Source of the DNA: a virus
DNA length: 11,571 bases
Strand: one strand, 5' to 3'
Virus genome (UHGV): UHGV-0116702
Both the position numbers and the translations under genes were made by a program. The notes beneath the pieces were generated by a model. The model searched no databases, was not told the origin of the DNA, and saw nothing but the letters and a program-made list of their open reading frames with translations. Below are positions 2,390 to 11,450 of the stretch, piece after piece; the first letter of the stretch is position 1; every line of letters begins with the position of its first letter.

Positions 2390-2428
2390 AATTCTCATAT
2401 AGAGCACTGATTACGAGAATGTTAAAGA

Positions 2429-2462
2429 GGCGATTTCCCCTTTCTGGGGTTATTCGCTTTTT
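2429..2462 (+). terminator. Candidate intrinsic terminator downstream of the methyltransferase gene
   Basis: GGCGATTTCCCCTTTCTGGGGTTATTCGC: nested stems GCGA/TCGC and CCCC/GGGG, followed by TTTTT at 2458-2462. Confidence 0.4.
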
Positions 2463-2597
2463 ACTGGAAGGGTTATTTTACAGAGGTTTTTCAAACCCCC
2501 TCAATAATAGAAACGAGCAACAAACGAAGAGCGAGAAATAAAATATTGAGACTGGTGAACGGGGTCTGTAAAGATTGTTTAAGGGGGCAGTTAAGAA

Positions 2598-2630
2598 GGT
2601 GGCTCTCCCTTTCTGGGGTTATCGCCTTGT
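2598..2630 (+). repeat. Second, degenerate copy of the CCTTTCTGGGGTTAT hairpin motif
   Basis: GGCTCTCCCTTTCTGGGGTTATCGCC shares an ~18-nt core with the hairpin at 2429-2462 but has a weaker T-tract (CTTGTATCTT). Confidence 0.35.
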
Positions 2631-2654
2631 ATCTTAGTGAGTCCAGGAAGTTCT

Positions 2655-2835
2655 CTGTGAAGAGTCTTGTCAGTCCTTTATATTGGGTGATTACAACTCA
2701 TTGAAAAATAAGTGTTTTTAGAATTTACTGTTAAGGTTACAGAGTTAACTGTGAAGAGACTTGTCAGTTCTCTATATATGGCTAATTACAACTAATTGAA
2801 AAATAAGAACTTTTAGAAATTACTGTCAGAGAGGT
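2655..2835. repeat. Two tandem ~94-bp direct repeats (about 85% identity over ~75 bp)
   Basis: Copy 1 starts CTGTGAAGAGTCTTGTCAGTCC at 2655; copy 2 starts CTGTGAAGAGACTTGTCAGTTC at 2749. Both contain ATTACAACT, ATTGAAAAATAAG and TTTTAGAA-TTACTGT. The CTGTGAAGAG head also occurs at 1403-1412 and in variant form at 286-295 and 1468-1477. Confidence 0.6.
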
Positions 2836-2946
2836 GAATACTTGATAGATACAGCTTTCCGGTTCTGTCAAGCTATTTTTTCATAGATAGCACAAAATGC
2901 TAAAGATACCCCTATACCATCTCGTACAGGGGATTTTGGAGGGAGT

Positions 2947-3123
2947 TTAACGGGGGTCTGTGTGGTCATTATCCTTAAGGTCAAGCGTCCATGTATGACC
3001 GAACAGTTTAAAGACAACAAGCACTCTGACAAGGACGTAACGAAGTAGCAGACCTGCAATAAGTCCAATACCTCCACCAGCCCATACATCAGGTGACCCC
3101 AGTTCAGGAGGGAGATTTACCAT
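2947..3123 (-). CDS. Hypothetical small membrane protein (58 aa, one predicted TM helix)
   Basis: ATG at 3123-3121 preceded by AAGGA with 6-nt spacing on the minus strand. Product MVNLPPELGSPDVWAGGGIGLIAGLLLRYVLVRVLVVFKLF... has a glycine-rich hydrophobic stretch. The track ORF 2947-3165 is the same frame extended to a TTG. Divergent from the 3421 operon. Confidence 0.3.
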   Translation of the reverse strand: MVNLPPELGSPDVWAGGGIGLIAGLLLRYVLVRVLVVFKLFGHTWTLDLKDNDHTDPR

Positions 3124-3136
3124 TAGTTTTCCTTGT

Positions 3137-3235
3137 AAGACGCTCTCAATCGCATTCTGACACAAAAAGTACCTGACCTTATGAGTTGACCTTAAGAGGC
3201 TGTTTAACTCGTTACAGAGCGATTGAAGAGGTCTG
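3137..3235. repeat. Inverted-repeat-bracketed element, copy 1 (conserved left and right arms, divergent interior)
   Basis: Left arm AGACGCTCTCAATCGCATTCT (3138-3158); right arm CTGTTTAACTCGTTACAGAGCGATTGAAGAGGTCTG (3200-3235). Arms are imperfect reverse complements sharing GCGATTGAG and GTCTG. Interior contains a doubled TGACCTTA. Confidence 0.55.
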
Positions 3236-3341
3236 TGTGCAATGCAATAACCATGTGACCACTCTCATAGCCACGCCTTTATATTTTACTCTCCCCATAG
3301 AACCATTATACCATAGATGTTAATAAATTGTTAAAAAATGC

Positions 3342-3370
3342 TTGACATTAGTCTTTGAAACTGCTAGTAT
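3342..3370 (+). promoter_or_regulatory. Candidate sigma70-type promoter for the 3421-4658 operon
   Basis: TTGACA (3342-3347), 17-nt spacer, TAGTAT (3365-3370); A/T-rich upstream tract TTAAAAAATG; about 50 nt upstream of the ATG at 3421. Confidence 0.45.
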
Positions 3371-3420
3371 TGTACATATAAGTTAACAGAGAATTAACAA
3401 TTATAAGGACTAGCTTATGA

Positions 3421-3900
3421 ATGAACGACAGAGAATTTAGAGCGATGCTTCAGGCATCAAGAGAACGCAAAGGCATTGACGAAGTAATTCGGGCAATTAC
3501 ACCGAGGAGTCGTTATATGCCAACCAGAAAGAGCACCCAGAACACTATTAAAAATTATTTGGCTAACTTCGACAGCTACGAGCAACTACCAAGTAAGCTT
3601 GATGATATTTTCATTGGATTCTGTAGAAGTGAAGGCCACCCGAAATACAACAAAAAACTATTTTATCTTCTAAAGAATCTTGACGAAATTAACTCAGCTA
3701 CCGTGACAAATTATCTTCAGCGACAAGCAACCAGACTTAGTTATGAATTACCAAGCGATAAATATTGTGCATTGCTTGCTGTAATGTGTGCAAAGCTAAT
3801 TGGTATTGTTGAACATCATATTGCCGTTGGTAATATTGAGCCAATGGAAAACGAGCAACCAGACTTTGAGTTTGACCCGTATATTTTGGAGGAATTTTAA
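3421..3900 (+). CDS. Hypothetical protein (159 aa) with acidic C-terminal tail
   Basis: ATG with AAGGA SD about 11 nt upstream; first gene after the candidate promoter; ends ...ENEQPDFEFDPYILEEF. No family recognised by eye. Confidence 0.6.
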   Translation: MNDREFRAMLQASRERKGIDEVIRAITPRSRYMPTRKSTQNTIKNYLANFDSYEQLPSKLDDIFIGFCRSEGHPKYNKKLFYLLKNLDEINSATVTNYLQRQATRLSYELPSDKYCALLAVMCAKLIGIVEHHIAVGNIEPMENEQPDFEFDPYILEEF

Positions 3901-3901
3901 A

Positions 3902-4183
3902 ATGAAAAACAAACACACATTAACCCGCATTTCAGAGGAAGCTTTTAACGAGCTTACCAGAATTAAACGAGCTACTAACTTGCCTCATCAAACTGTAATG
4001 CAGCTTGCAATTGCTAAAGAGGTTACTGAGTCGGATTTACTGAAATATCCAGTCTCTAAAGGTCGTAAACACATCCGAATTAGTCAGGACGCTTTAGCTA
4101 CTTTGAAGGCGCTTAACGGCTTTAAGATTGATATTGCCCGTCTATTGAGTCTTAAAATTCACAAGCTGTCTCTGGAGGTCTGA
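3902..4183 (+). CDS. Hypothetical small protein (93 aa), possibly DNA-binding
   Basis: ATG at 3902 lies 1 nt after the upstream stop, with GGAGGA about 12 nt upstream. Preferred over the track's TTG start at 3800, which overlaps the upstream gene. Two internally similar segments (TLTRISEEAFNELTRIK / KHIRISQDALATLKAL) suggest a repeated motif; the DNA-binding idea is speculative. Confidence 0.55.
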   Translation: MKNKHTLTRISEEAFNELTRIKRATNLPHQTVMQLAIAKEVTESDLLKYPVSKGRKHIRISQDALATLKALNGFKIDIARLLSLKIHKLSLEV

Positions 4184-4185
4184 TT

Positions 4186-4458
4186 ATGAAGCAATGGCGA
4201 GATGATATTAAACGGTTCTTTGCAACTTACTTCATGATTAATTACGAAACAGGAATGCTTGAATGGATTGATGGTGGAGAGGTTAAGACAAGAGATGACG
4301 CTTACGGTAATCCAATGATTCGTTATGGCACTCGTGATTATTATGTGAAATATGTCATCTGGTTTTTGCATCATGAAGTTCAGGCAACTAAAAAAATTAT
4401 CTTCAGGGATGGTAATAAAAGAAATTGCCACCCAAACAATTTACTACTGGAGATTTAA
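4186..4458 (+). CDS. HNH_3-family (homing-endonuclease-like) small protein, possibly catalytically degenerate
   Basis: 90 aa; ATG 8 nt after GGAGG and 3 nt after the upstream stop. C-terminal YYVKYVIWFLHHEVQATKKIIFRDGNKRNCHPNNL matches the HNH_3 pattern (YYVHRLV...VxHIDGNKxNNxxxNL), but by my manual alignment the HID histidine is Phe (IIFRDGNK). Confidence 0.55.
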   Translation: MKQWRDDIKRFFATYFMINYETGMLEWIDGGEVKTRDDAYGNPMIRYGTRDYYVKYVIWFLHHEVQATKKIIFRDGNKRNCHPNNLLLEI

Positions 4459-4658
4459 TGCTATGTATTAAATTCGAATATTTGACAGATAAAATGATTA
4501 AGCATGTATCAGACCTGCTCATCAAAGAAGATGGTTTCGGTGATGTTTGCAATCCAAAAGATATCTTCATTCACGCCACCAGCCCAAATGAAACACTGAA
4601 AACAGCAGTTACAGCGGAATGGTTTGAACGAAATAAAGTAGAATTAGGCTATTGGTAG
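4458..4658 (+). CDS. Hypothetical protein (66 aa)
   Basis: ATG overlaps the upstream stop (TAATG) with GGAG 5 nt upstream, indicating translational coupling. Track ORF 4425-4658 is the same frame from a TTG inside the HNH gene. Confidence 0.5.
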   Translation: MLCIKFEYLTDKMIKHVSDLLIKEDGFGDVCNPKDIFIHATSPNETLKTAVTAEWFERNKVELGYW

Positions 4659-4692
4659 TCCGAGACTTTAAGAGAAATTAGAAAAACAGCTT

Positions 4693-4816
4693 CTCAGACG
4701 CTCTCAATCGCATTCTAACGCAAAAAACTATCTTATTTTAGGGTGGGTAATACCACTGTACAGGCTACCCCTGAAAAAGACTGTTTAGCTCGTTACAGAG
4801 CGATTGAGGAGGTCTG
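4693..4816. repeat. Inverted-repeat-bracketed element, copy 2
   Basis: Left arm CAGACGCTCTCAATCGCATTCT (4695-4716); right arm CTGTTTAGCTCGTTACAGAGCGATTGAGGAGGTCTG (4781-4816). Arms are nearly identical to copy 1 (right arm 35/37) while the interior differs in sequence and length. Ends 22 nt before the ATG at 4838. Confidence 0.55.
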
Positions 4817-4837
4817 GTAAAAAGGAGATTTTAGGAA

Positions 4838-5161
4838 ATGAACAATTACGAATTACAGATTTTCGTTGATAGCGACACCGCTATGATGATTCAGGCTTTC
4901 ACTGATGTAGGTGTTAGCATTGACTTTGACAGGCTGTTAAGGCTAATGGCTGATAACTCAGAAACAATTGAAGATTTTATTCAGTCGGTGGAGTTTAACG
5001 AGCCTCGAATGATGCTACCAATTAAAGACAGCAACATGAAAAGATTGGTTATCGAGCAAACGAACAAATTCAGCATTAGCCCTGAAAGATATCTCAAGGC
5101 AGCTATAGCAATTTTGTACGCTGACAATATTCTGGTGACGGATTCTGTGAGGATTCACTAA
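4838..5161 (+). CDS. Hypothetical protein (107 aa)
   Basis: ATG 9 nt after AAAAAGGAG SD; no recognisable motif. Confidence 0.6.
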   Translation: MNNYELQIFVDSDTAMMIQAFTDVGVSIDFDRLLRLMADNSETIEDFIQSVEFNEPRMMLPIKDSNMKRLVIEQTNKFSISPERYLKAAIAILYADNILVTDSVRIH

Positions 5162-5238
5162 TGGGTTTAATAATTGCTTGGGCGTTGCTTGGCTTATTTG
5201 TTGGTTGCTGGGTAGGTAACACAGTAAATAAGAATTGA
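5161..5238 (+). CDS. Candidate 25-aa hydrophobic microprotein (MGLIIAWALLGLFVGCWVGNTVNKN)
   Basis: ATG overlaps the stop of the 107-aa gene (TAATG). Sequence is almost entirely one TM-like helix with a polar C-terminus. Too short for the ORF track; support is overlap geometry and composition only. Confidence 0.3.
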   Translation: MGLIIAWALLGLFVGCWVGNTVNKN

Positions 5239-5262
5239 TGTTACCAATCTGTTAAAAAGCTG

Positions 5263-5291
5263 TTGACAAATAACCTTGAGCATGACATAAT
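5263..5291 (+). promoter_or_regulatory. Candidate sigma70-type promoter
   Basis: TTGACA (5263-5268), 17-nt spacer, CATAAT (5286-5291). The track's 67-aa ORF 5263-5466 begins inside this -35 hexamer. Confidence 0.4.
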
Positions 5292-5481
5292 TGTATATAT
5301 GAGGATAGTCTTCTATCCGAAGTCTATGAGGAGAGCAATTCTCTCTTATTTTCTTTCAATAATCCGATGGATGGATATTCTGAGTTGGAAAGGTGCAATG
5401 CTTTTCGTCATGGCCTTTCAGTTTAGTCTGAGAGGCTATCTCAAAAAGTGCTTAATCATTCATTGAACCCTTTACAGCTTT

Positions 5482-5510
5482 GCCCTAACTCATGATTAGG
5501 GCTTTCTTTA
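5482..5510 (+). terminator. Candidate intrinsic terminator
   Basis: GCCCTAA-CTCATGA-TTAGGGC perfect 7-bp stem followed by TTTCTTTA. Confidence 0.45.
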
Positions 5511-5579
5511 AGAGTTTTTAAACAGAGCTTTTAAAGAAAGTTTTTCCTGAAACTTCGTTAACGTTAAAGCAAACCTTCA

Positions 5580-5613
5580 AAGCCCTTCACAGATTATGTT
5601 TAGGGCTTTTCTT
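5580..5613 (+). terminator. Second candidate terminator hairpin (related stem)
   Basis: AAGCCCT - 15-nt loop - AGGGCTT followed by TTTCTT; shares the AGGGCTTT(T)CTT tail with the hairpin at 5482-5510. Confidence 0.4.
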
Positions 5614-5708
5614 AATAGAGCATCTTTAATAAATCGTTAAGTCATCTTCTAAGTGTATTGGCGTTGAAGGTGCTCTATTAAGAAATAACCACTTAGAGGA
5701 AAATTATA

Positions 5709-6419
5709 ATGACAAACGATTTATATATTAACGGTAAAAAGGTTGATAGCTTCGGTGACTGGTCGCCACAGACTGAACATCCAGCTATCACTATCCAGCG
5801 TAAAGAACATGATGAAAGAATTGCACTTGAGCAAGAAATCCGAATGTCACCAAAGGTAATTACCTTTGTAGCTCCTGAGCCTCAAGAGATGCCTGATATT
5901 TGCAAAACTCAAGCATTACTTGAGCTTGAGCGTGAATATTACCCACTGCTGAAAGCACAAAGAATTAAACTTGATATTGCTTACGACAATGTGAAGAACT
6001 TTGAAGAGACTGAAAAGCCAACTGATTTTGATATTGAAGTGGAAATTAGACAAAACCCATTCGTATATTACTCAGTTGAGGATAATGATGGTTTTGGTAC
6101 AGCAAGAGAGAATATCTCAAAAGTTCTTCAAAACATCCCTGAAGGATTCCGTTTAATTGATGTTAGACCAGCTTCACGCGGTACAGGTTCATATATTTTA
6201 CTGTCTGATAAAACAGATGAAGAGATTTGTCAGTTAGCTGAAAAGAATCTACTTGAGCGTCATAGCAAAAAATTAAACAGATTTAAGCAAGAACTTGCTA
6301 ACCAGCTTCAGGCTATGAAAGACCTTATTTCTGCATATGAAACGCAGAAGAAGGTTGCTATGCAGGCTGATATTGAGCAGTTAGTGAAGATTTCTCAGAA
6401 ATACGCAAAGGCACTTTGA
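5709..6419 (+). CDS. Hypothetical protein (236 aa), acidic with helical C-terminal region
   Basis: ATG about 10 nt after AGAGGA SD; long uninterrupted ORF; no family recognised by eye. Confidence 0.65.
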   Translation: MTNDLYINGKKVDSFGDWSPQTEHPAITIQRKEHDERIALEQEIRMSPKVITFVAPEPQEMPDICKTQALLELEREYYPLLKAQRIKLDIAYDNVKNFEETEKPTDFDIEVEIRQNPFVYYSVEDNDGFGTARENISKVLQNIPEGFRLIDVRPASRGTGSYILLSDKTDEEICQLAEKNLLERHSKKLNRFKQELANQLQAMKDLISAYETQKKVAMQADIEQLVKISQKYAKAL

Positions 6420-6444
6420 CTATGAATTAAAAAGGAGGTGATGA

Positions 6445-6648
6445 ATGTTTGATTTAACGGAACGCTATGAACTTATTAAAGCAATTAGCGAGAGATTGAA
6501 AGAACAACCCAACAAACCAAAACGAATCAAATCATCCACCTCTAAACAAAATAACAGAATCAGAAAAATTGCTAAATGGTGTCTGGATAGATTACCAAGT
6601 GATTGTCAGATTGTCGGTGAAGATGGCAATTATTATCTGATTAGGTAA
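6445..6648 (+). CDS. Hypothetical small basic protein (67 aa)
   Basis: ATG 5 nt after AAAAAGGAGG SD; lysine/arginine-rich centre (KPKRIKSSTSKQNNRIRKIAKW). Confidence 0.55.
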   Translation: MFDLTERYELIKAISERLKEQPNKPKRIKSSTSKQNNRIRKIAKWCLDRLPSDCQIVGEDGNYYLIR

Positions 6649-6714: not shown

Positions 6715-6736
6715 GTATGTGTGCTACATGAAATCT

Positions 6737-6787
6737 GTAAAGCTAATATCCACACTGAAAAATAGAATTTACGTAGCTCACGCTTAA
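6737..6787 (+). repeat. Direct repeat A (51 bp, 38-bp perfect core) immediately upstream of the tape-measure gene
   Basis: GTAAAGCTAATATCCACACTGAAAAATAGAATTTACGTAGCTCACGCTTAA. Core 6750-6787 is identical to 9024-9061. Contains a -10-like TAGAAT with no good -35. Confidence 0.8.
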
Positions 6788-6804: not shown

Positions 6805-8985
6805 ATGAGCAAATTCACAGTTGATAGTTTTATCGTTGAACTAGGCTTCAATGAAAACGTTATTAAGGGCTTGCAAAGAGTTGAAAAGGCAGCTTTGCAG
6901 TCAGCACAAAGAATTGAACGTAATTTGAATAGAGCGTTTAAGGTCGATACCAAGCAACTTGACAGCAACCTGACAAGTTCTTTAGGGCAACTTGAAAGGA
7001 AGTTTAATAAGACCTTTGACAAGATTGAACAGAGAGCAAGAAATACTAAAGCTTTCCAGTTTACCACCAGATTTAATGACACTGTTAATCCTCCAAAACA
7101 ACCGAGACAGCCACGAATTAGCGGCAACAGAGCAATCACAGCAGCGCATAGCGTGAATATGTCTAAGCTTGGTGATATTAATCCGCTGATGGCTAAAATG
7201 TTTAAAGCACAGTATTACAGCTTAAGCGGTAAGGCTGGTAATATTGGAAGTGAAAAGTTTAACGCTGAACTTGCAAAATTAAATCAATCTCTTCGTGAAA
7301 CGTTGAATAAACTCAGGTCACAGACAAAGACCACCAGCATTAACAATACAAGCGACGCATTTAATAATCTTGCAAGCAATGCAATCAAGTTATCTGGTGC
7401 ATTTTACTCTGTGATGGGTGCTCTTAACGCTTACAAGGCCATTATGAATGCAGGTCTTAAACGAGATTCCGCACAGAGAGCCGCTAAGTTTGTACTTGGT
7501 GATAAAGCATCTGAAGCTGAGGTATTTATTCGAAATTTAGCAGACAAGACAGGTCTTAATATCTCTGAAGGGCTATCAAGCTACGCTAAGTTTGCAGCAG
7601 GTGCTCAGGGTTCTATGTCACAGGAACAGACACAGGAGCTATTTGGTAATGCAACGGCTATGAGTCGCTTAATGGGGCTTTCTAACGATGAGCTAAACGG
7701 CATTTTGAAAGCATTTGAGCAGATGGCGAGCAAGGGCAAGATTCAGGCTGAAGAGCTTCGTGGACAGTTAGGTGACCGTATGGCTGGTGCATTTAAGCTA
7801 TTCGCTGAAGCATTGGGTATGACTGCTACAGAGCTTGATAAAGCGATGAAAGACGGGAAGATTTTAAGTAGTGATACTCTCCCTAAAGTCGCTAAACAGA
7901 TGGGCTTGATGATTGATAAAGCGGGTGGCTGGGCTGAAGTCGCTAAGAGCACTCAGACAGCTTTAGGGAAACTGGCTAACAACTGGGATGATACGATGGT
8001 GAAAATCTTCTCAGGTTCACAGGATGAGCTAAACGGCTTCTTATCCAGCCTGAGTAACCTGCTTAGTGAAATGGGGATGAGTTCATCTATCGCTGGTGAT
8101 GCTATCGGTGGACTTATCGACATGCTTAAAGCTGGTGTGGATGACATCCGTATCTTTAACAATCACCTTGAAGGCTGGATTCTACAGACTAAGAAGTTCT
8201 ATTACAGCCTTGATGACACTAAACGAAAACTACTTGATGAAGTCGGTGATGGTTTTATCAACTTCGTCAAAGGTCTTGCTATAGCGTTATCTGCAAAGAC
8301 ACTATTCAGTGCTGCTACAGGGGTTATAAACCTGACAAGAGCAATCACAACGTTAGGTACAAGAGCTAATCAGGTTGCTGGTCAGGTAGCTACTGGTAAA
8401 GGTGGTGGAAAACTGAAAGGTGTAGCTGGTGGTGTAGGTAGTGCTCTTGCAATTGGTTATGCTGATGACGGTTATGAAACAGCGTTAGCATTAGCTTCAA
8501 TGATTCCACAAATCAGAGGCGTCACTCTTGGTTTATATGCATTGAAGAAAGCACTGGATTTTATGAATCAGGAAGTAGTCAAAAACGCTAATATGCATCC
8601 ATCTGGGGTAGGTGTGGGTAGTGACTTTAATCCCGTGTATTCTGGTGACCCTAATAAACCGAATATGATTAACGAAGGATGGGGTAGAATTTTTAGTTCA
8701 ATGGGTGAATTGTTTAACAATGCCACAATGAATATTGCAAGATTCAATCATCCAGAGTTAAACAACATTAAGCAAGATTCAGCATTAACGAGTGCAGATA
8801 TTCAGAGTCTGAGGGATGAAATCTCTGCTTTAAGTAAGCGTATTCAGGAGCCTGTGAAAGTTTCCTTGGGTGGTGAAGTTGCCATTAAACCAGATGAAAC
8901 CAGCTTTATGACCTTTAGCAGTAATATCTACGACCAATATGCAGAAGCTACGCTATTAAGTTCATCATTCCCAGAAGATGATTGA
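6805..8985 (+). CDS. Phage tail tape-measure-domain protein (726 aa)
   Basis: N-terminal coiled-coil-like segment, then LNGILKAFEQMASKGKIQAEELRGQLGDRMAGAFKLFAEALGMTATELDKAMKDGKILSSDTLPKVAKQMG, which matches the conserved tape-measure core. Downstream there are glycine-rich hydrophobic stretches (ATGKGGGKLKGVAGGVGSALAIGYA). SD AAGAGG is about 13 nt upstream. Confidence 0.7.
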   Translation: MSKFTVDSFIVELGFNENVIKGLQRVEKAALQSAQRIERNLNRAFKVDTKQLDSNLTSSLGQLERKFNKTFDKIEQRARNTKAFQFTTRFNDTVNPPKQPRQPRISGNRAITAAHSVNMSKLGDINPLMAKMFKAQYYSLSGKAGNIGSEKFNAELAKLNQSLRETLNKLRSQTKTTSINNTSDAFNNLASNAIKLSGAFYSVMGALNAYKAIMNAGLKRDSAQRAAKFVLGDKASEAEVFIRNLADKTGLNISEGLSSYAKFAAGAQGSMSQEQTQELFGNATAMSRLMGLSNDELNGILKAFEQMASKGKIQAEELRGQLGDRMAGAFKLFAEALGMTATELDKAMKDGKILSSDTLPKVAKQMGLMIDKAGGWAEVAKSTQTALGKLANNWDDTMVKIFSGSQDELNGFLSSLSNLLSEMGMSSSIAGDAIGGLIDMLKAGVDDIRIFNNHLEGWILQTKKFYYSLDDTKRKLLDEVGDGFINFVKGLAIALSAKTLFSAATGVINLTRAITTLGTRANQVAGQVATGKGGGKLKGVAGGVGSALAIGYADDGYETALALASMIPQIRGVTLGLYALKKALDFMNQEVVKNANMHPSGVGVGSDFNPVYSGDPNKPNMINEGWGRIFSSMGELFNNATMNIARFNHPELNNIKQDSALTSADIQSLRDEISALSKRIQEPVKVSLGGEVAIKPDETSFMTFSSNIYDQYAEATLLSSSFPEDD

Positions 8986-9010
8986 TTTAACGGTGTTCTA
9001 CGTGAATAAA

Positions 9011-9061
9011 GCAAAGTTAATACCCACACTGAAAAATAGAATTTACGTAGCTCACGCTTAA
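9011..9061 (+). repeat. Direct repeat B (copy of repeat A) immediately downstream of the tape-measure gene
   Basis: GCAAAGTTAATACCCACACTGAAAAATAGAATTTACGTAGCTCACGCTTAA; 48/51 identical to 6737-6787, offset 2274 bp; lies about 80 nt upstream of the ATG at 9142. Confidence 0.8.
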
Positions 9062-9141
9062 CAGAGAAAATACTTATATATCAAAGGCTTGGTTAAAAAT
9101 GATTAAAATACACTAAGCCTTTGAAATCAAAGGAGAATTTA

Positions 9142-9930
9142 ATGATTTTTAGCAATCAAATCCGCTACAGTGGCAAAGATGGCGTTTACTTCCACTTAAG
9201 AGATAATGTAGATGCCTTCTTAACCTTATCAGCAACTGAGAACATGGAATTTGATAGCCCTATGCAGGTGACTACACAGAACATGCAATCAGGGCAAACC
9301 GTCACAGATAATGTGCAAAGAGCACCCAGAACAATCACTATTAGCGGTGTCGTTGTAGTTGGCTATGAAGGGAGCTTATTATTAACTCGTCAGGGTCAAT
9401 TAGTAGAGAACTTCATCGACACTCTTGAAAACTGGCGTGACCAGAAACAAATTATTTCGGTCATCTGTAAAGACGGAATTAAAATTGATGATTCCATTAT
9501 CACAAGTTTTAAAGCCTCTAAAGATGTTGGAATTTCAAACGGATTAAGAATCCAACTAACTTTTCAGGAAATTAACTTCAGAGCTGTTGTGGGGCAGACT
9601 GATATCTCGGCTGCAACTGGAAAAGCCGCGACTACGAACGATGGTGGTGTGACCAGTAAGAAGAATGCAGGTAACGTGACCACTGAACGCAATAACGCGC
9701 CTATGCTATCGTGCAAAGAGCTAATGAGTATTAGCGATGTATCCGGTTACGCTCCAGCTATCAGAAATGATATTCTCGATGCTCAGATTAAGTGTAATAA
9801 GGCTTGGAAGCTGGACTATTCAGACTTAACAGAAGCTGAAAAAACCAACGTCACCAATGCTAATAGTAACGCTGGTCGGGTAGCTTCAAAGCTTAAAAAG
9901 TACTCAGTGAACCCTCACAAAAAATACTAA
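9142..9930 (+). CDS. Hypothetical protein (262 aa); possibly tail-associated on positional grounds only
   Basis: ATG 6 nt after AAGGAG SD; the track ORF from 9121 is the same frame from an upstream TTG. Sits directly after the tape-measure gene, where siphophages usually encode the distal tail protein, but I see no diagnostic motif. Confidence 0.55.
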
Positions 9931-11450
9931 ATCTCTACTACATCAACATCTATTAAACCCCTCTCAGTGACTTCAGAAAGCGACTGTATAGCCTCTGTAA
10001 CGTCCTCTGAGGGGTTTTCTGTTATTGATAAGGTGATTGACTTACCATTGTGAAAAGTTACTTTACAGCGACGTTTAGCAGTATTTAAAACGACCTCTTT
10101 AACAGCACTTTTGATTATCAGTTGTGCTTCAATTCTCCCCGCCTTTGTAGTCAAGTCACAATCAGACAAACACCCCACATCAATAGATTTAAGGCGTTGT
10201 GTCTCCTTCTCGATATCCGCATCAACCTGTGATAGCTCACCTTTTAACTGCTTTAGTTTGATGGTAATAGCTGACAAATCTTCAATTTCAAGTGATAGCT
10301 GTACCAGCTTTTCAATATTGCTTGAGATGTGTTCACGGTGTAGCCTCAACATATCTATGGTATTCGTCGTATCGCTATCAAATCGGTCAAGACGAGATAG
10401 CAGAGTAAGCAATGTACCATCGGTTTGCTTACGTGAAAGTCCTTTAGCACTACAACGGTTTTCATTACGAAGAGGACAACGATAAATCCCGTTTCTTGTA
10501 TCACTAAAGCCTGTGATAATCAGAGCATGACCACATTCAGAACAACGGATAACACCTTTAAAGAGATTCACACTCAATGGTTTATCTGAAACAGACCTCT
10601 TTCCATAACGAGAATGTGATAGTTGTTGAACTTTGTAGAATGTTGTTTCATCTATAATTGCAGGATAATAACCAGCTATCTCCTCACAGCCTTTAGGTGT
10701 GAAGTAACCAATTACAGAGCGATTCTTCAGAAGGTCTTGTACTGAGGTTTGACCAAACTTACCAGCTTTATATTGGTTAAGCGTCTGGTGACCTTCATCA
10801 TTAAGAGTCCTGACAATCGCCCAGATAGATTTGCCCTCTAACCGTAGCTGAAAGCACCTCTTCACAGTTTCTACCTTCTCAGGTATTACAGAGAAGCTTT
10901 TACGGTCATCATTCAGCCTTAACCATGCAGGACAACGCCTAGAAATCTTGATACCAGCTTTAGCAGCTTCTTTCTTTGCATCCCATGCAGCTTGTATACG
11001 CTCAGCCTTACGTAATGATTCCTCATGCGCCCTTTGCATTATCAGAATGCTTTTAATCAGGGATAACGGGTCTCTTAAGCTTTCCTTTGTGTAATGTTCA
11101 CCATCGGACAAGGTGACTACATCTACACCAGAGCGAAGAATGTTTCGTAATAGCTCACTTGCTCGGTCTACGGCCTGACGTGACAAACGGTCTAAACTCT
11201 CGATTAGTAGTGTATCACCAGCTTTAACAAGCCCTTTCTCGATAGCGGTTAAAAAGTCACCTAAGCCACCTTTCAAGTGCTTACCAGTGAATCCACTCAC
11301 ACCTAAATCACGGAAGGATAAATCTTGGTCAAGGTAGTACTCAGGTTGAGCCTTAAGCCAGTCATTAACCATCTTAGACTGTCTGCGTAGTGAATCACCT
11401 CGGGATTGCTTCTCAGATGAAAACCTGATGTAAGAAATGGCACGTTTCAT
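9927..11450 (-). CDS. Large serine recombinase (integrase, 507 aa)
   Basis: N-terminal resolvase-type catalytic domain with the nucleophile motif YIRFSSEKQ and arginines in DRLSR; central recombinase region; Cys-rich zinc ribbon CSECGH...[11 protein letters not shown]; C-terminal coiled-coil-like segment. GAGGTG SD 4 nt before the ATG. Confidence 0.9.

Follow-up and report, generated by a model that had tools for sequence, protein, structure and literature searches.

The sequence analysed here, the 11,571-nucleotide (nt) stretch of UHGV virus genome UHGV-0116702 read as one strand from 5' to 3' (hereafter the window), carries at positions 2947..3123 a minus-strand open reading frame (ORF) of 58 amino acids (aa), which starts with ATG at 3123-3121, ends with TAA at 2949-2947, and encodes MVNLPPELGSPDVWAGGGIGLIAGLLLRYVLVRVLVVFKLFGHTWTLDLKDNDHTDPR. 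The ORF is preceded by the Shine-Dalgarno (SD) sequence AAGGA (3130..3134, minus strand), 6 nt upstream of the ATG, and by a predicted 5' leader (3124..3298, minus strand; ~175 nt in the window), and it is followed, 14 nt past the stop, by a terminator-like hairpin (2909..2932, minus strand; 9-bp stem with 5 GC pairs). A predicted sigma-70 promoter, P_L (3305..3334, minus strand), would transcribe this unit leftward, and a second predicted promoter, P_R (3342..3370, plus strand), would serve the plus-strand operon starting at 3421. The ORF is almost certainly a real coding gene under purifying selection, because frameshifts and stops are not tolerated in its homologues, and sequence analysis and structure modelling make it very probable that the product is a single-pass inner-membrane peptide of 58-62 aa.

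ORF length alone is unremarkable, with 54 ORFs of at least 40 aa in the window; since such lengths are common by chance, conservation was the deciding test. The window was aligned with 16 loci from complete Escherichia coli genomes (n = 17), and a wider set combined E. coli, E. albertii, and metagenome copies, of which 60 loci were contributed by a pattern scan of metagenome contigs (individual loci are given by L numbers where they have to be told apart). The ORF was intact in 17/17 E. coli copies and, across all sources, in all 78 assessable copies (63 distinct nucleotide sequences, 50 distinct proteins), with a length of 58, 61 or 62 aa. In the wider set, the ratio of nonsynonymous to synonymous substitution rates (dN/dS) was 0.21 in the peptide frame vs 0.32-6.7 in the five other frames, and the peptide frame was the sole stop-free frame of the six. 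Among the 17 E. coli copies, mean pairwise dN/dS was 0.18, variable sites were distributed 23/6/37 over the three codon positions, and the ORF showed just two indels, an insertion of 12 nt that gives the 62 aa of allele B and a deletion of 3 nt that gives 61 aa, unlike indels in the flanks, which were not multiples of three. Substitutions between allele A and allele B were conservative (V/F, L/I, K/R, T/S). An intact ORF with ATG and a GAAGG SD was also found in Citrobacter sp. ANG330 (56% identity) and in one metagenome contig. In the protein database, all matches at E ≤ 0.01 were close relatives, each with E. coli as source name; clusters of 527, 264, 144, 127, and 51 member sequences were of canonical form, and ~95% of the member sequences were canonical by our own tally. 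Database variants with a frameshifted C-terminal extension of 12-27 aa (…HTDPVKLPPKPPVRDGIGVSLAFCAIY) were associated with a C5 run just before the stop (GACCCCCGTTAA, 2950-2962); they mostly formed clusters of 1-8 sequences and may represent assembly errors or real slippage variants.

Other minus-strand reading frames and starts were considered and rejected. An overlapping minus-strand ORF (3089..2868, 73 aa) was broken in 9/17 copies, where it was truncated to 9 aa, and the remaining minus-strand ORFs of the array overlap plus-strand genes. An upstream TTG start at 3165 (72 aa) is located within an inverted-repeat element that many copies do not have, and the conserved start is therefore the ATG at 3123. 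A leaderless upstream ORF beginning at the ATG of the predicted transcription start site (TSS) varied between copies in frame and length (10, 11 or 28 aa). The original prediction, which had named the 58-aa ORF as a gene with a good SD and as the only minus-strand gene inside the plus-strand array, is thus borne out on all three counts. Annotation of the gene is patchy: of the 16 RefSeq loci examined, PGAP (the NCBI annotation pipeline) calls it in 8 and leaves the other 8 blank, and gene callers overlooked it in two further genomes. Locus L082 carries the gene uncalled.

P_L consists of TTAACA, an 18-nt spacer, and an extended -10 (TGGTATAAT), matches the consensus at 11/12 positions, and would start transcription near 3298. 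Wherever a copy still has this region, P_L is conserved, as seen in E. coli, E. albertii, Citrobacter, and metagenomes. P_R (TTGACA-17-TAGTAT, with TG) is back-to-back with P_L, the -35 hexamers being 7 bp apart and the predicted TSSs ~79 bp apart, an arrangement resembling that of lambda PRM/PR, whose TSSs are ~82 bp apart. Apart from P_R, no plus-strand promoter-like site was detected in 2400-3600 by a consensus scan, which a weak or atypical promoter could escape. On the strand facing the ORF and its 3' end, no site that could serve as an antisense promoter scored at least 9/12, and inspection by eye gave poor candidates only. On the downstream side, the hairpin at 2909..2932 may act as a bidirectional terminator, as ATTTT follows it on the plus strand, and the 49 nt beyond it (2860-2908) are very conserved (nucleotide diversity pi 0.05). 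In L014 (NZ_CP026473.1), the hairpin is present as its exact reverse complement (a hairpin inversion), and in L010 and L013 its loop is enlarged by ~17 inserted nt; none of these changes disrupts the stem.

Both promoters are flanked or overlapped by operator-like repeats. A dyad TGTTAA-N5-TGTTAA at 3318..3334 (plus strand) reaches into P_L, overlapping both its -35 and its spacer, and occupies -59..-43 with respect to P_R, and a second, inverted dyad of the same form at 3383..3399 (minus strand) lies at ~+6..+22 relative to P_R. A third strong promoter (5263-5291) has its -35 overlapped by near-copies of the dyad (5239-5266), and a further TGTTAA repeat site occurs at 1574-1590; the repeat spacing is 11 bp. 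In total, five TGTTAA dyad sites were found vs 0.16 expected by chance, and the repeats were conserved in 70 of the 83 fetched loci. By eye, P_R and the third promoter have a common layout in which the repeat is followed by TTGACA. From their sequence and placement, the TGTTAA repeats are probably operators of an island regulator, and we infer that one DNA-binding protein would control P_L, P_R, and the third promoter together. Because P_L shares the repeats with the rightward operon and the third promoter, the peptide gene would probably be switched together with the early genes of the island, rather than run freely as a housekeeping gene. Two candidate regulators are encoded on the island, namely a ribbon-helix-helix-like protein (3902-4183) and the helix-turn-helix (HTH) domain of a Dam methyltransferase fusion.

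The leader differs considerably between copies. Between ...CACAGA and the SD of the window, an island-specific, imperfect inverted-repeat element of 99 nt is located (copy 1, 3137..3235, not assigned to a strand), the left end of which (3132/3137; repeat families D7 and D4) abuts the SD and which in the predicted mRNA would form a long hairpin ending just 5' of the SD. The original prediction had noted that the gene starts directly beside this element; this is correct for the window, but it is not a feature of the gene, since the ORF and an SD are kept in the 27 of 79 copies that lack the element and in those relatives that have diverged furthest, which lack it too. In copies without the element, the leader is ~82-132 nt long and the SD reads CAGGAAA or GAAGGTAC; an SD is kept in all three leader architectures, and an ancestral leader, ...CACAGAAGGTAYATTGAATG, is found in L015, L017, L018, L019, and L020. 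On the basis of these comparisons, the element is a secondary insertion into the leader of the peptide mRNA and not intrinsic to the gene. Further copies are located at 4690-4816, just upstream of the ribosome-binding site (RBS) of gene 4838, and, in inverted orientation, at 1146-1207; copies 1 and 2 are 89-90% identical and, being near-palindromic, also complementary. The element was detected in 404 genomes, about as many as carry the island (404-412; the overlap of the two sets was left unchecked), and this similar count led to the rejection of a genome-wide miniature inverted-repeat transposable element. The element may act as a hairpin in the RNA, bind a protein or be mobile. In O111 strains (L016, E. 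coli O111 RM9322, 1173-1225), IS1203 (IS3 family) is inserted within the element and separates the ORF, still intact, from its promoter. Escherichia albertii NBRC 107761 has two copies of the locus (L019 and L021), one with and one without the element.

Several features of the predicted mRNA were assessed for control at the RNA level. The purine-rich 5' end GGGGAGAG (3290-3298) is complementary to codons 4-6 (CUCCCUCC), and this complementarity is kept in two diverged versions in E. coli and Citrobacter (GGGGAGAG or GAGAGGGA vs CUCCCUCC or UUCCCUC). Third-position diversity was 0.087 in codons 1-18 (3070-3123) vs 0.25 in the rest of the ORF, i.e., threefold lower. Together, these two observations may point to control of translation, or alleles A and B may simply have recombined into a mosaic. 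Leader folds were no more stable than those of shuffled sequences (z = -0.24 and -0.99); the z-score of the whole-mRNA fold was -2.4, a value for which the terminator and the hairpin of the inverted repeat are probably responsible. A small leader hairpin at 3255..3274 (minus strand) carries loop insertions of ~14-50 nt in some copies.

The peptide was predicted to consist of a periplasmic N-terminal tail (residues 1-13), a transmembrane (TM) helix (~14-41), and a cytoplasmic tail with the motif LFGxxWxxDLKD... The best 19-residue Kyte-Doolittle window (residues 19-37) had a mean of 2.29, the hydrophobic core spans approximately residues 18-41, and AlphaFold2 modelled a single helix over residues 11-54 (pLDDT ~90 over residues 21-40), in agreement with the single TM segment originally predicted. 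No signal-peptide n-region and no lipobox were found in the peptide. The N-terminal tail is acidic, with a net charge of -2 and no lysine or arginine (K/R), and 5-8 K/R are located between R28 and the C-terminus; because of this charge distribution, the positive-inside rule predicts an N-out/C-in topology. R28 and R33, invariant and within the hydrophobic stretch, are the most unusual feature of the peptide; in the predicted topology, R28, R33, and K/R39 would sit at the cytoplasmic interface and be followed by a conserved cytoplasmic LFGRxWxxDLKD tail. The C-terminal tail HTWTLDLKDNDHTDPR is rich in D, K, and R. One face of the TM helix displays a glycine zipper (G16xxxG20xxxG24); such GxxxGxxxG motifs are associated with helix packing and with oligomeric membrane pores. 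Invariant or near-invariant in all relatives are G17, G18, G20, L21, G24, R28, Y29, V32, and R33, and, towards the C-terminus, V37, F38, L40, F41, G42, W45, D48, L49, K50, and D51.

Sequence searches place the peptide in a family of its own. The window allele had no match in Pfam (E ≤ 0.1) or PHROGs, and neither allele had a match in NCBIfam (E ≤ 1) or among the anti-phage defence models of PADLOC (E ≤ 1). A profile search of PDB sequences returned one meaningless match only (E = 0.2), and tblastn against 50,697 phage records returned none. An exhaustive profile search of 1.84 billion cluster representatives retrieved 15 proteins, all of the same narrow family. By these searches, the peptide belongs to an uncharacterised small membrane-protein family, among the small membrane peptides carried on mobile elements, and the family is restricted to the island lineage in Escherichia, Citrobacter, and records labelled Shigella or Salmonella. 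The peptide region was present in 412 E. coli genomes vs 404 for a central island gene, and the promoter and peptide region is the best conserved part of the island, mostly with 90-95% identity vs 60-80% for 5709-6648. The gene was present in every island copy examined, diverged islands included, and is therefore not variable cargo. Even in variant islands, the gene stays divergent from the gene that opens the operon (183-185 aa), namely in L018, which has a tyrosine integrase and lies near msrPQ, L020 from Citrobacter, which has a neighbouring small resolvase, and L083, which lies at another integration site.

The window corresponds to an island of ~11.5 kb, and the same island is located between ymdF and wrbA in E. 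coli ECNB21-M121 (L001, 9349-21047); E. coli NT1F10 bears the island as well. Relatives were found in ~404-412 of 5,426 complete E. coli genomes (~7.5%), always in the chromosome, while a blastn search of the region against plasmids gave no match; the island also occurs in E. albertii, Citrobacter, and records labelled Shigella or Salmonella. To the left of the peptide gene lies the gene for the Dam methyltransferase-HTH fusion (1721-2389), and to its right a plus-strand array of small genes (3421-6648), which includes a 159-aa protein (3421-3900), the ribbon-helix-helix-like protein, and an HNH protein. Further downstream follow genes for a tape-measure protein (6805-8985), a Dit-like baseplate protein (9121-9930), and, on the minus strand, a large serine recombinase (9927-11450). 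The tape-measure and Dit region is 87-95% identical at the nucleotide level to genomes of Felixounavirus (FelixO1-like virulent myoviruses). From this gene content and by analogy, we infer that the island is a phage satellite resembling the PLEs of Vibrio cholerae, apparently one of FelixO1-like virulent phages; it is apparently undescribed, as a literature search found no published description of the island or the peptide, and one seeming match used "satellite" in an unrelated sense.

Several repeats outside the peptide gene were recorded. A 69-nt direct repeat (87% identical) is located immediately 5' of the tape-measure and Dit-like genes (6719-6787 and 8993-9061), and the left 1.7 kb, which is free of ORFs, contains incomplete copies of it in inverted orientation (534-568 and 1583-1606). 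The repeat was not found in phage genomes by blastn, and it may be a regulatory or late-promoter element. Tandem repeats of ~94-95 nt (2649-2731 and 2743-2826) and a further pair (2421-2453 and 2590-2622) are located between the Dam and peptide genes, in 560 nt without an ORF. These repeats and the ORF-free region 1-1720 are candidates for an origin, iterons or a packaging site. Parts of the ORF-free repeat regions are conserved in the Citrobacter island.

Regarding function, the favoured analogue is LidI, the lysis-inhibition disruptor of the Vibrio cholerae PLE satellites, a protein of 66 aa with a transmembrane domain that was formerly unannotated and is conserved in all PLEs (PMC7182436). 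As with LidI, the product is a small TM protein from an unannotated ORF without recognisable domains; both are conserved in every member of their satellite family, which on the PLE side has a large serine recombinase and parasitises a virulent myovirus. They differ in that LidI belongs to the late genes and does not appear until late in ICP1 infection, whereas the peptide gene is a lone cistron on the leftward arm of a divergent sigma-70 promoter pair, and in host genus and helper phage. The profile search and the tblastn search against phages retrieved nothing outside the peptide's own family, and LidI was not compared directly. Holins, pinholins (e.g., S21 68), and other small membrane proteins of phage lysis are alike in size, with a glycine-zipper face on a TM helix and a highly charged C-terminal tail, and the peptide has what is expected of a holin in having at least one TM helix and a charged hydrophilic C-terminus. 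It differs from them in having a single TM helix, in having no adjoining endolysin or spanin gene, and in lying outside a late or lysis cassette, its neighbours being the Dam-HTH gene, non-coding repeats, and an early-looking operon. No holin profile of Pfam or PHROGs matched the peptide, and no endolysin or spanin domain was found in the island ORFs scanned (the integrase was not scanned with PHROGs and the tape measure not with Pfam). The Dit-like protein had "endolysin" PHROG matches, but these were secondary to the best ones, to the Pfam Dit-like tail protein and to phrog_3721, of unknown function.

The favoured explanation is that a conserved membrane-peptide gene has a role in infection, and as a whole it has roughly an even chance of being right. 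Its more specific part, that the peptide serves as a membrane effector while the helper phage infects the cell, is put forward tentatively and by analogy, at well under even chances. The peptide would insert in the inner membrane, its glycine-zipper helix would self-associate or dock onto a host or phage membrane protein, and a membrane-dependent step of helper infection would be changed, either lysis timing, as for LidI, or DNA entry or superinfection. The leftward arm of the divergent promoter pair carries no conserved ORF other than the peptide gene.

A number of points weigh against this explanation. The two arginines make the TM segment marginal, at +1.4 to +1.8 kcal/mol on the unweighted Hessa scale. 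In the diverged locus L018, a C9 run shifts the conserved ATG out of frame, and the remaining ORF is open; this homopolymer directly follows the ATG (8020-8035, GCA_047706215.1) and may come from a sequencing error, mark a pseudogene or form a tract prone to slippage. The TSS, the terminator, and translation of the gene are all predictions, and the satellite status of the island is itself deduced from sequence and analogy. The searches returned no similarity to a holin, Imm/Sie or other characterised protein family, and the functional assignment draws on analogy and context. Finally, P_L appears strong enough by consensus to be constitutive, which would fit maintenance, exclusion or addiction equally well.

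An addiction or stress peptide resembling type I toxins is the first of two alternatives to be considered unlikely, and it is less supported than an infection effector. Such a peptide would depolarise the membrane, an antisense RNA or its structured leader would restrain its translation, and it would serve to keep the island stably in the chromosome or to kill cells once they are infected. The peptide shares its format with Hok/Gef, Ldr, TisB, ZorO, and ShoB; these toxins are carried on chromosomes or mobile elements, are made from mRNAs with a long 5' leader, and consist of fewer than 60 aa, with one hydrophobic helix and a tail that is polar or charged. The peptide has the size and hydrophobicity of this class (58-62 aa, Kyte-Doolittle 2.29, one AlphaFold2 helix), together with a charged tail, a glycine zipper, and a long leader whose 5'-terminal purine run could pair with codons 4-6 in two diverged versions; the threefold lower third-position diversity in codons 1-18 further hints at an RNA-level constraint on translation initiation. 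However, this low synonymous diversity could equally be an allele A/B recombination mosaic, the leader does not fold more stably than its shuffles, and P_R is the only promoter-like site on the opposite strand in 2400-3600. No Rfam family, antitoxin or other, matched in the whole window (E ≤ 1), which also has no tRNA, and none of the toxin families Hok_Gef, Ldr, TisB, Ibs, and Fst matched in Pfam (E ≤ 0.1) or NCBIfam (E ≤ 1). The locus thus differs from type I systems in having no detected antisense or divergent small RNA and no Pfam or Rfam match, and also in being single-copy per island. With regard to the original suggestion of a small toxin, holin-like or regulatory peptide controlled from the divergent region, control from there is plausible in view of P_L/P_R and the TGTTAA repeats, but none of the proposed classes is singled out; there was no toxin or holin family match, no antisense RNA family or promoter was found, and no lysis cassette lies nearby.

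At similarly low odds, the peptide may be a constitutive membrane protein of a maintenance arm, i.e., a moron-like exclusion factor made from P_L in uninfected cells, which would block DNA entry or abort unrelated phages to the benefit of the host (cf. lambda rexB, T4 imm). The predicted membrane location fits this, and the near-consensus sigma-70 promoter with its extended -10 needs no activator. The P_L/P_R pair is also similar to the back-to-back promoters PRM/PR of lambda, and in switches of this type, genes for maintenance and exclusion are located on the leftward arm; like lambda RexB (on the PRM transcript) or T4 Imm, the peptide would be a membrane protein on an arm divergent from a lytic or early operon. 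On the other hand, the peptide arm has no repressor gene, there is no homology to either protein, and accessory exclusion genes usually vary among related elements, whereas the peptide gene is universal in the island copies examined and the most conserved part. The P_L core is, in addition, overlapped by the repeats that flank P_R and the third promoter, which suggests joint switching, and PADLOC, as noted above, gave no match.

It is improbable that the leftward transcript acts mainly as an RNA, or through the act of transcription, with the peptide secondary. It could do so by interference with P_R, the -35 hexamers being only 7 bp apart, by pairing of the leader or its element with the copy at 4690-4816, to which element copy 1 is complementary just upstream of the gene 4838 RBS, or by read-through into the repeat-rich non-coding region. 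The weak U-tract of the terminator and the low diversity of 2860-2908 also count in its favour. This explanation cannot account for the protein-level purifying selection and frame conservation, and the inverted-repeat element is absent from a third of the copies. That the ORF is a chance one and no gene, as its shortness, the many ORFs of similar length in the window, and the missing PGAP annotation in half of the RefSeq loci might suggest, is effectively refuted by the 78/78 intact copies, the dN/dS of 0.21 and all other conservation tests, and the conserved promoter and SD.

Under-annotation of small membrane proteins is systematic, and correcting the annotation of this gene is useful in itself. 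The gene is the most conserved coding element of an island found in ~7.5% of complete E. coli genomes. A bolder reading, offered as a long shot, is that the peptide, encoded by the only gene on the arm divergent from the early operon, fills the slot held by a repressor in other phage and satellite switches and is a key maintenance or sensing component of a new, PLE-like family of satellites in E. coli and Citrobacter that depend on FelixO1-like virulent phages. If this were true, a membrane sensor or effector would couple entry of the helper genome or depolarisation to induction of the island, or would reprogram helper lysis for release, and either the sensing or the lysis reprogramming would constitute a new mechanism class for satellite-helper interaction. 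FelixO1-like virulent phages are isolated and studied for phage therapy and typing, and a peptide that modulates lysis, exclusion or induction would affect their performance on strains bearing the island. If an effector role holds, the peptide would follow LidI as the second case of a satellite turning a tiny membrane protein on its helper.

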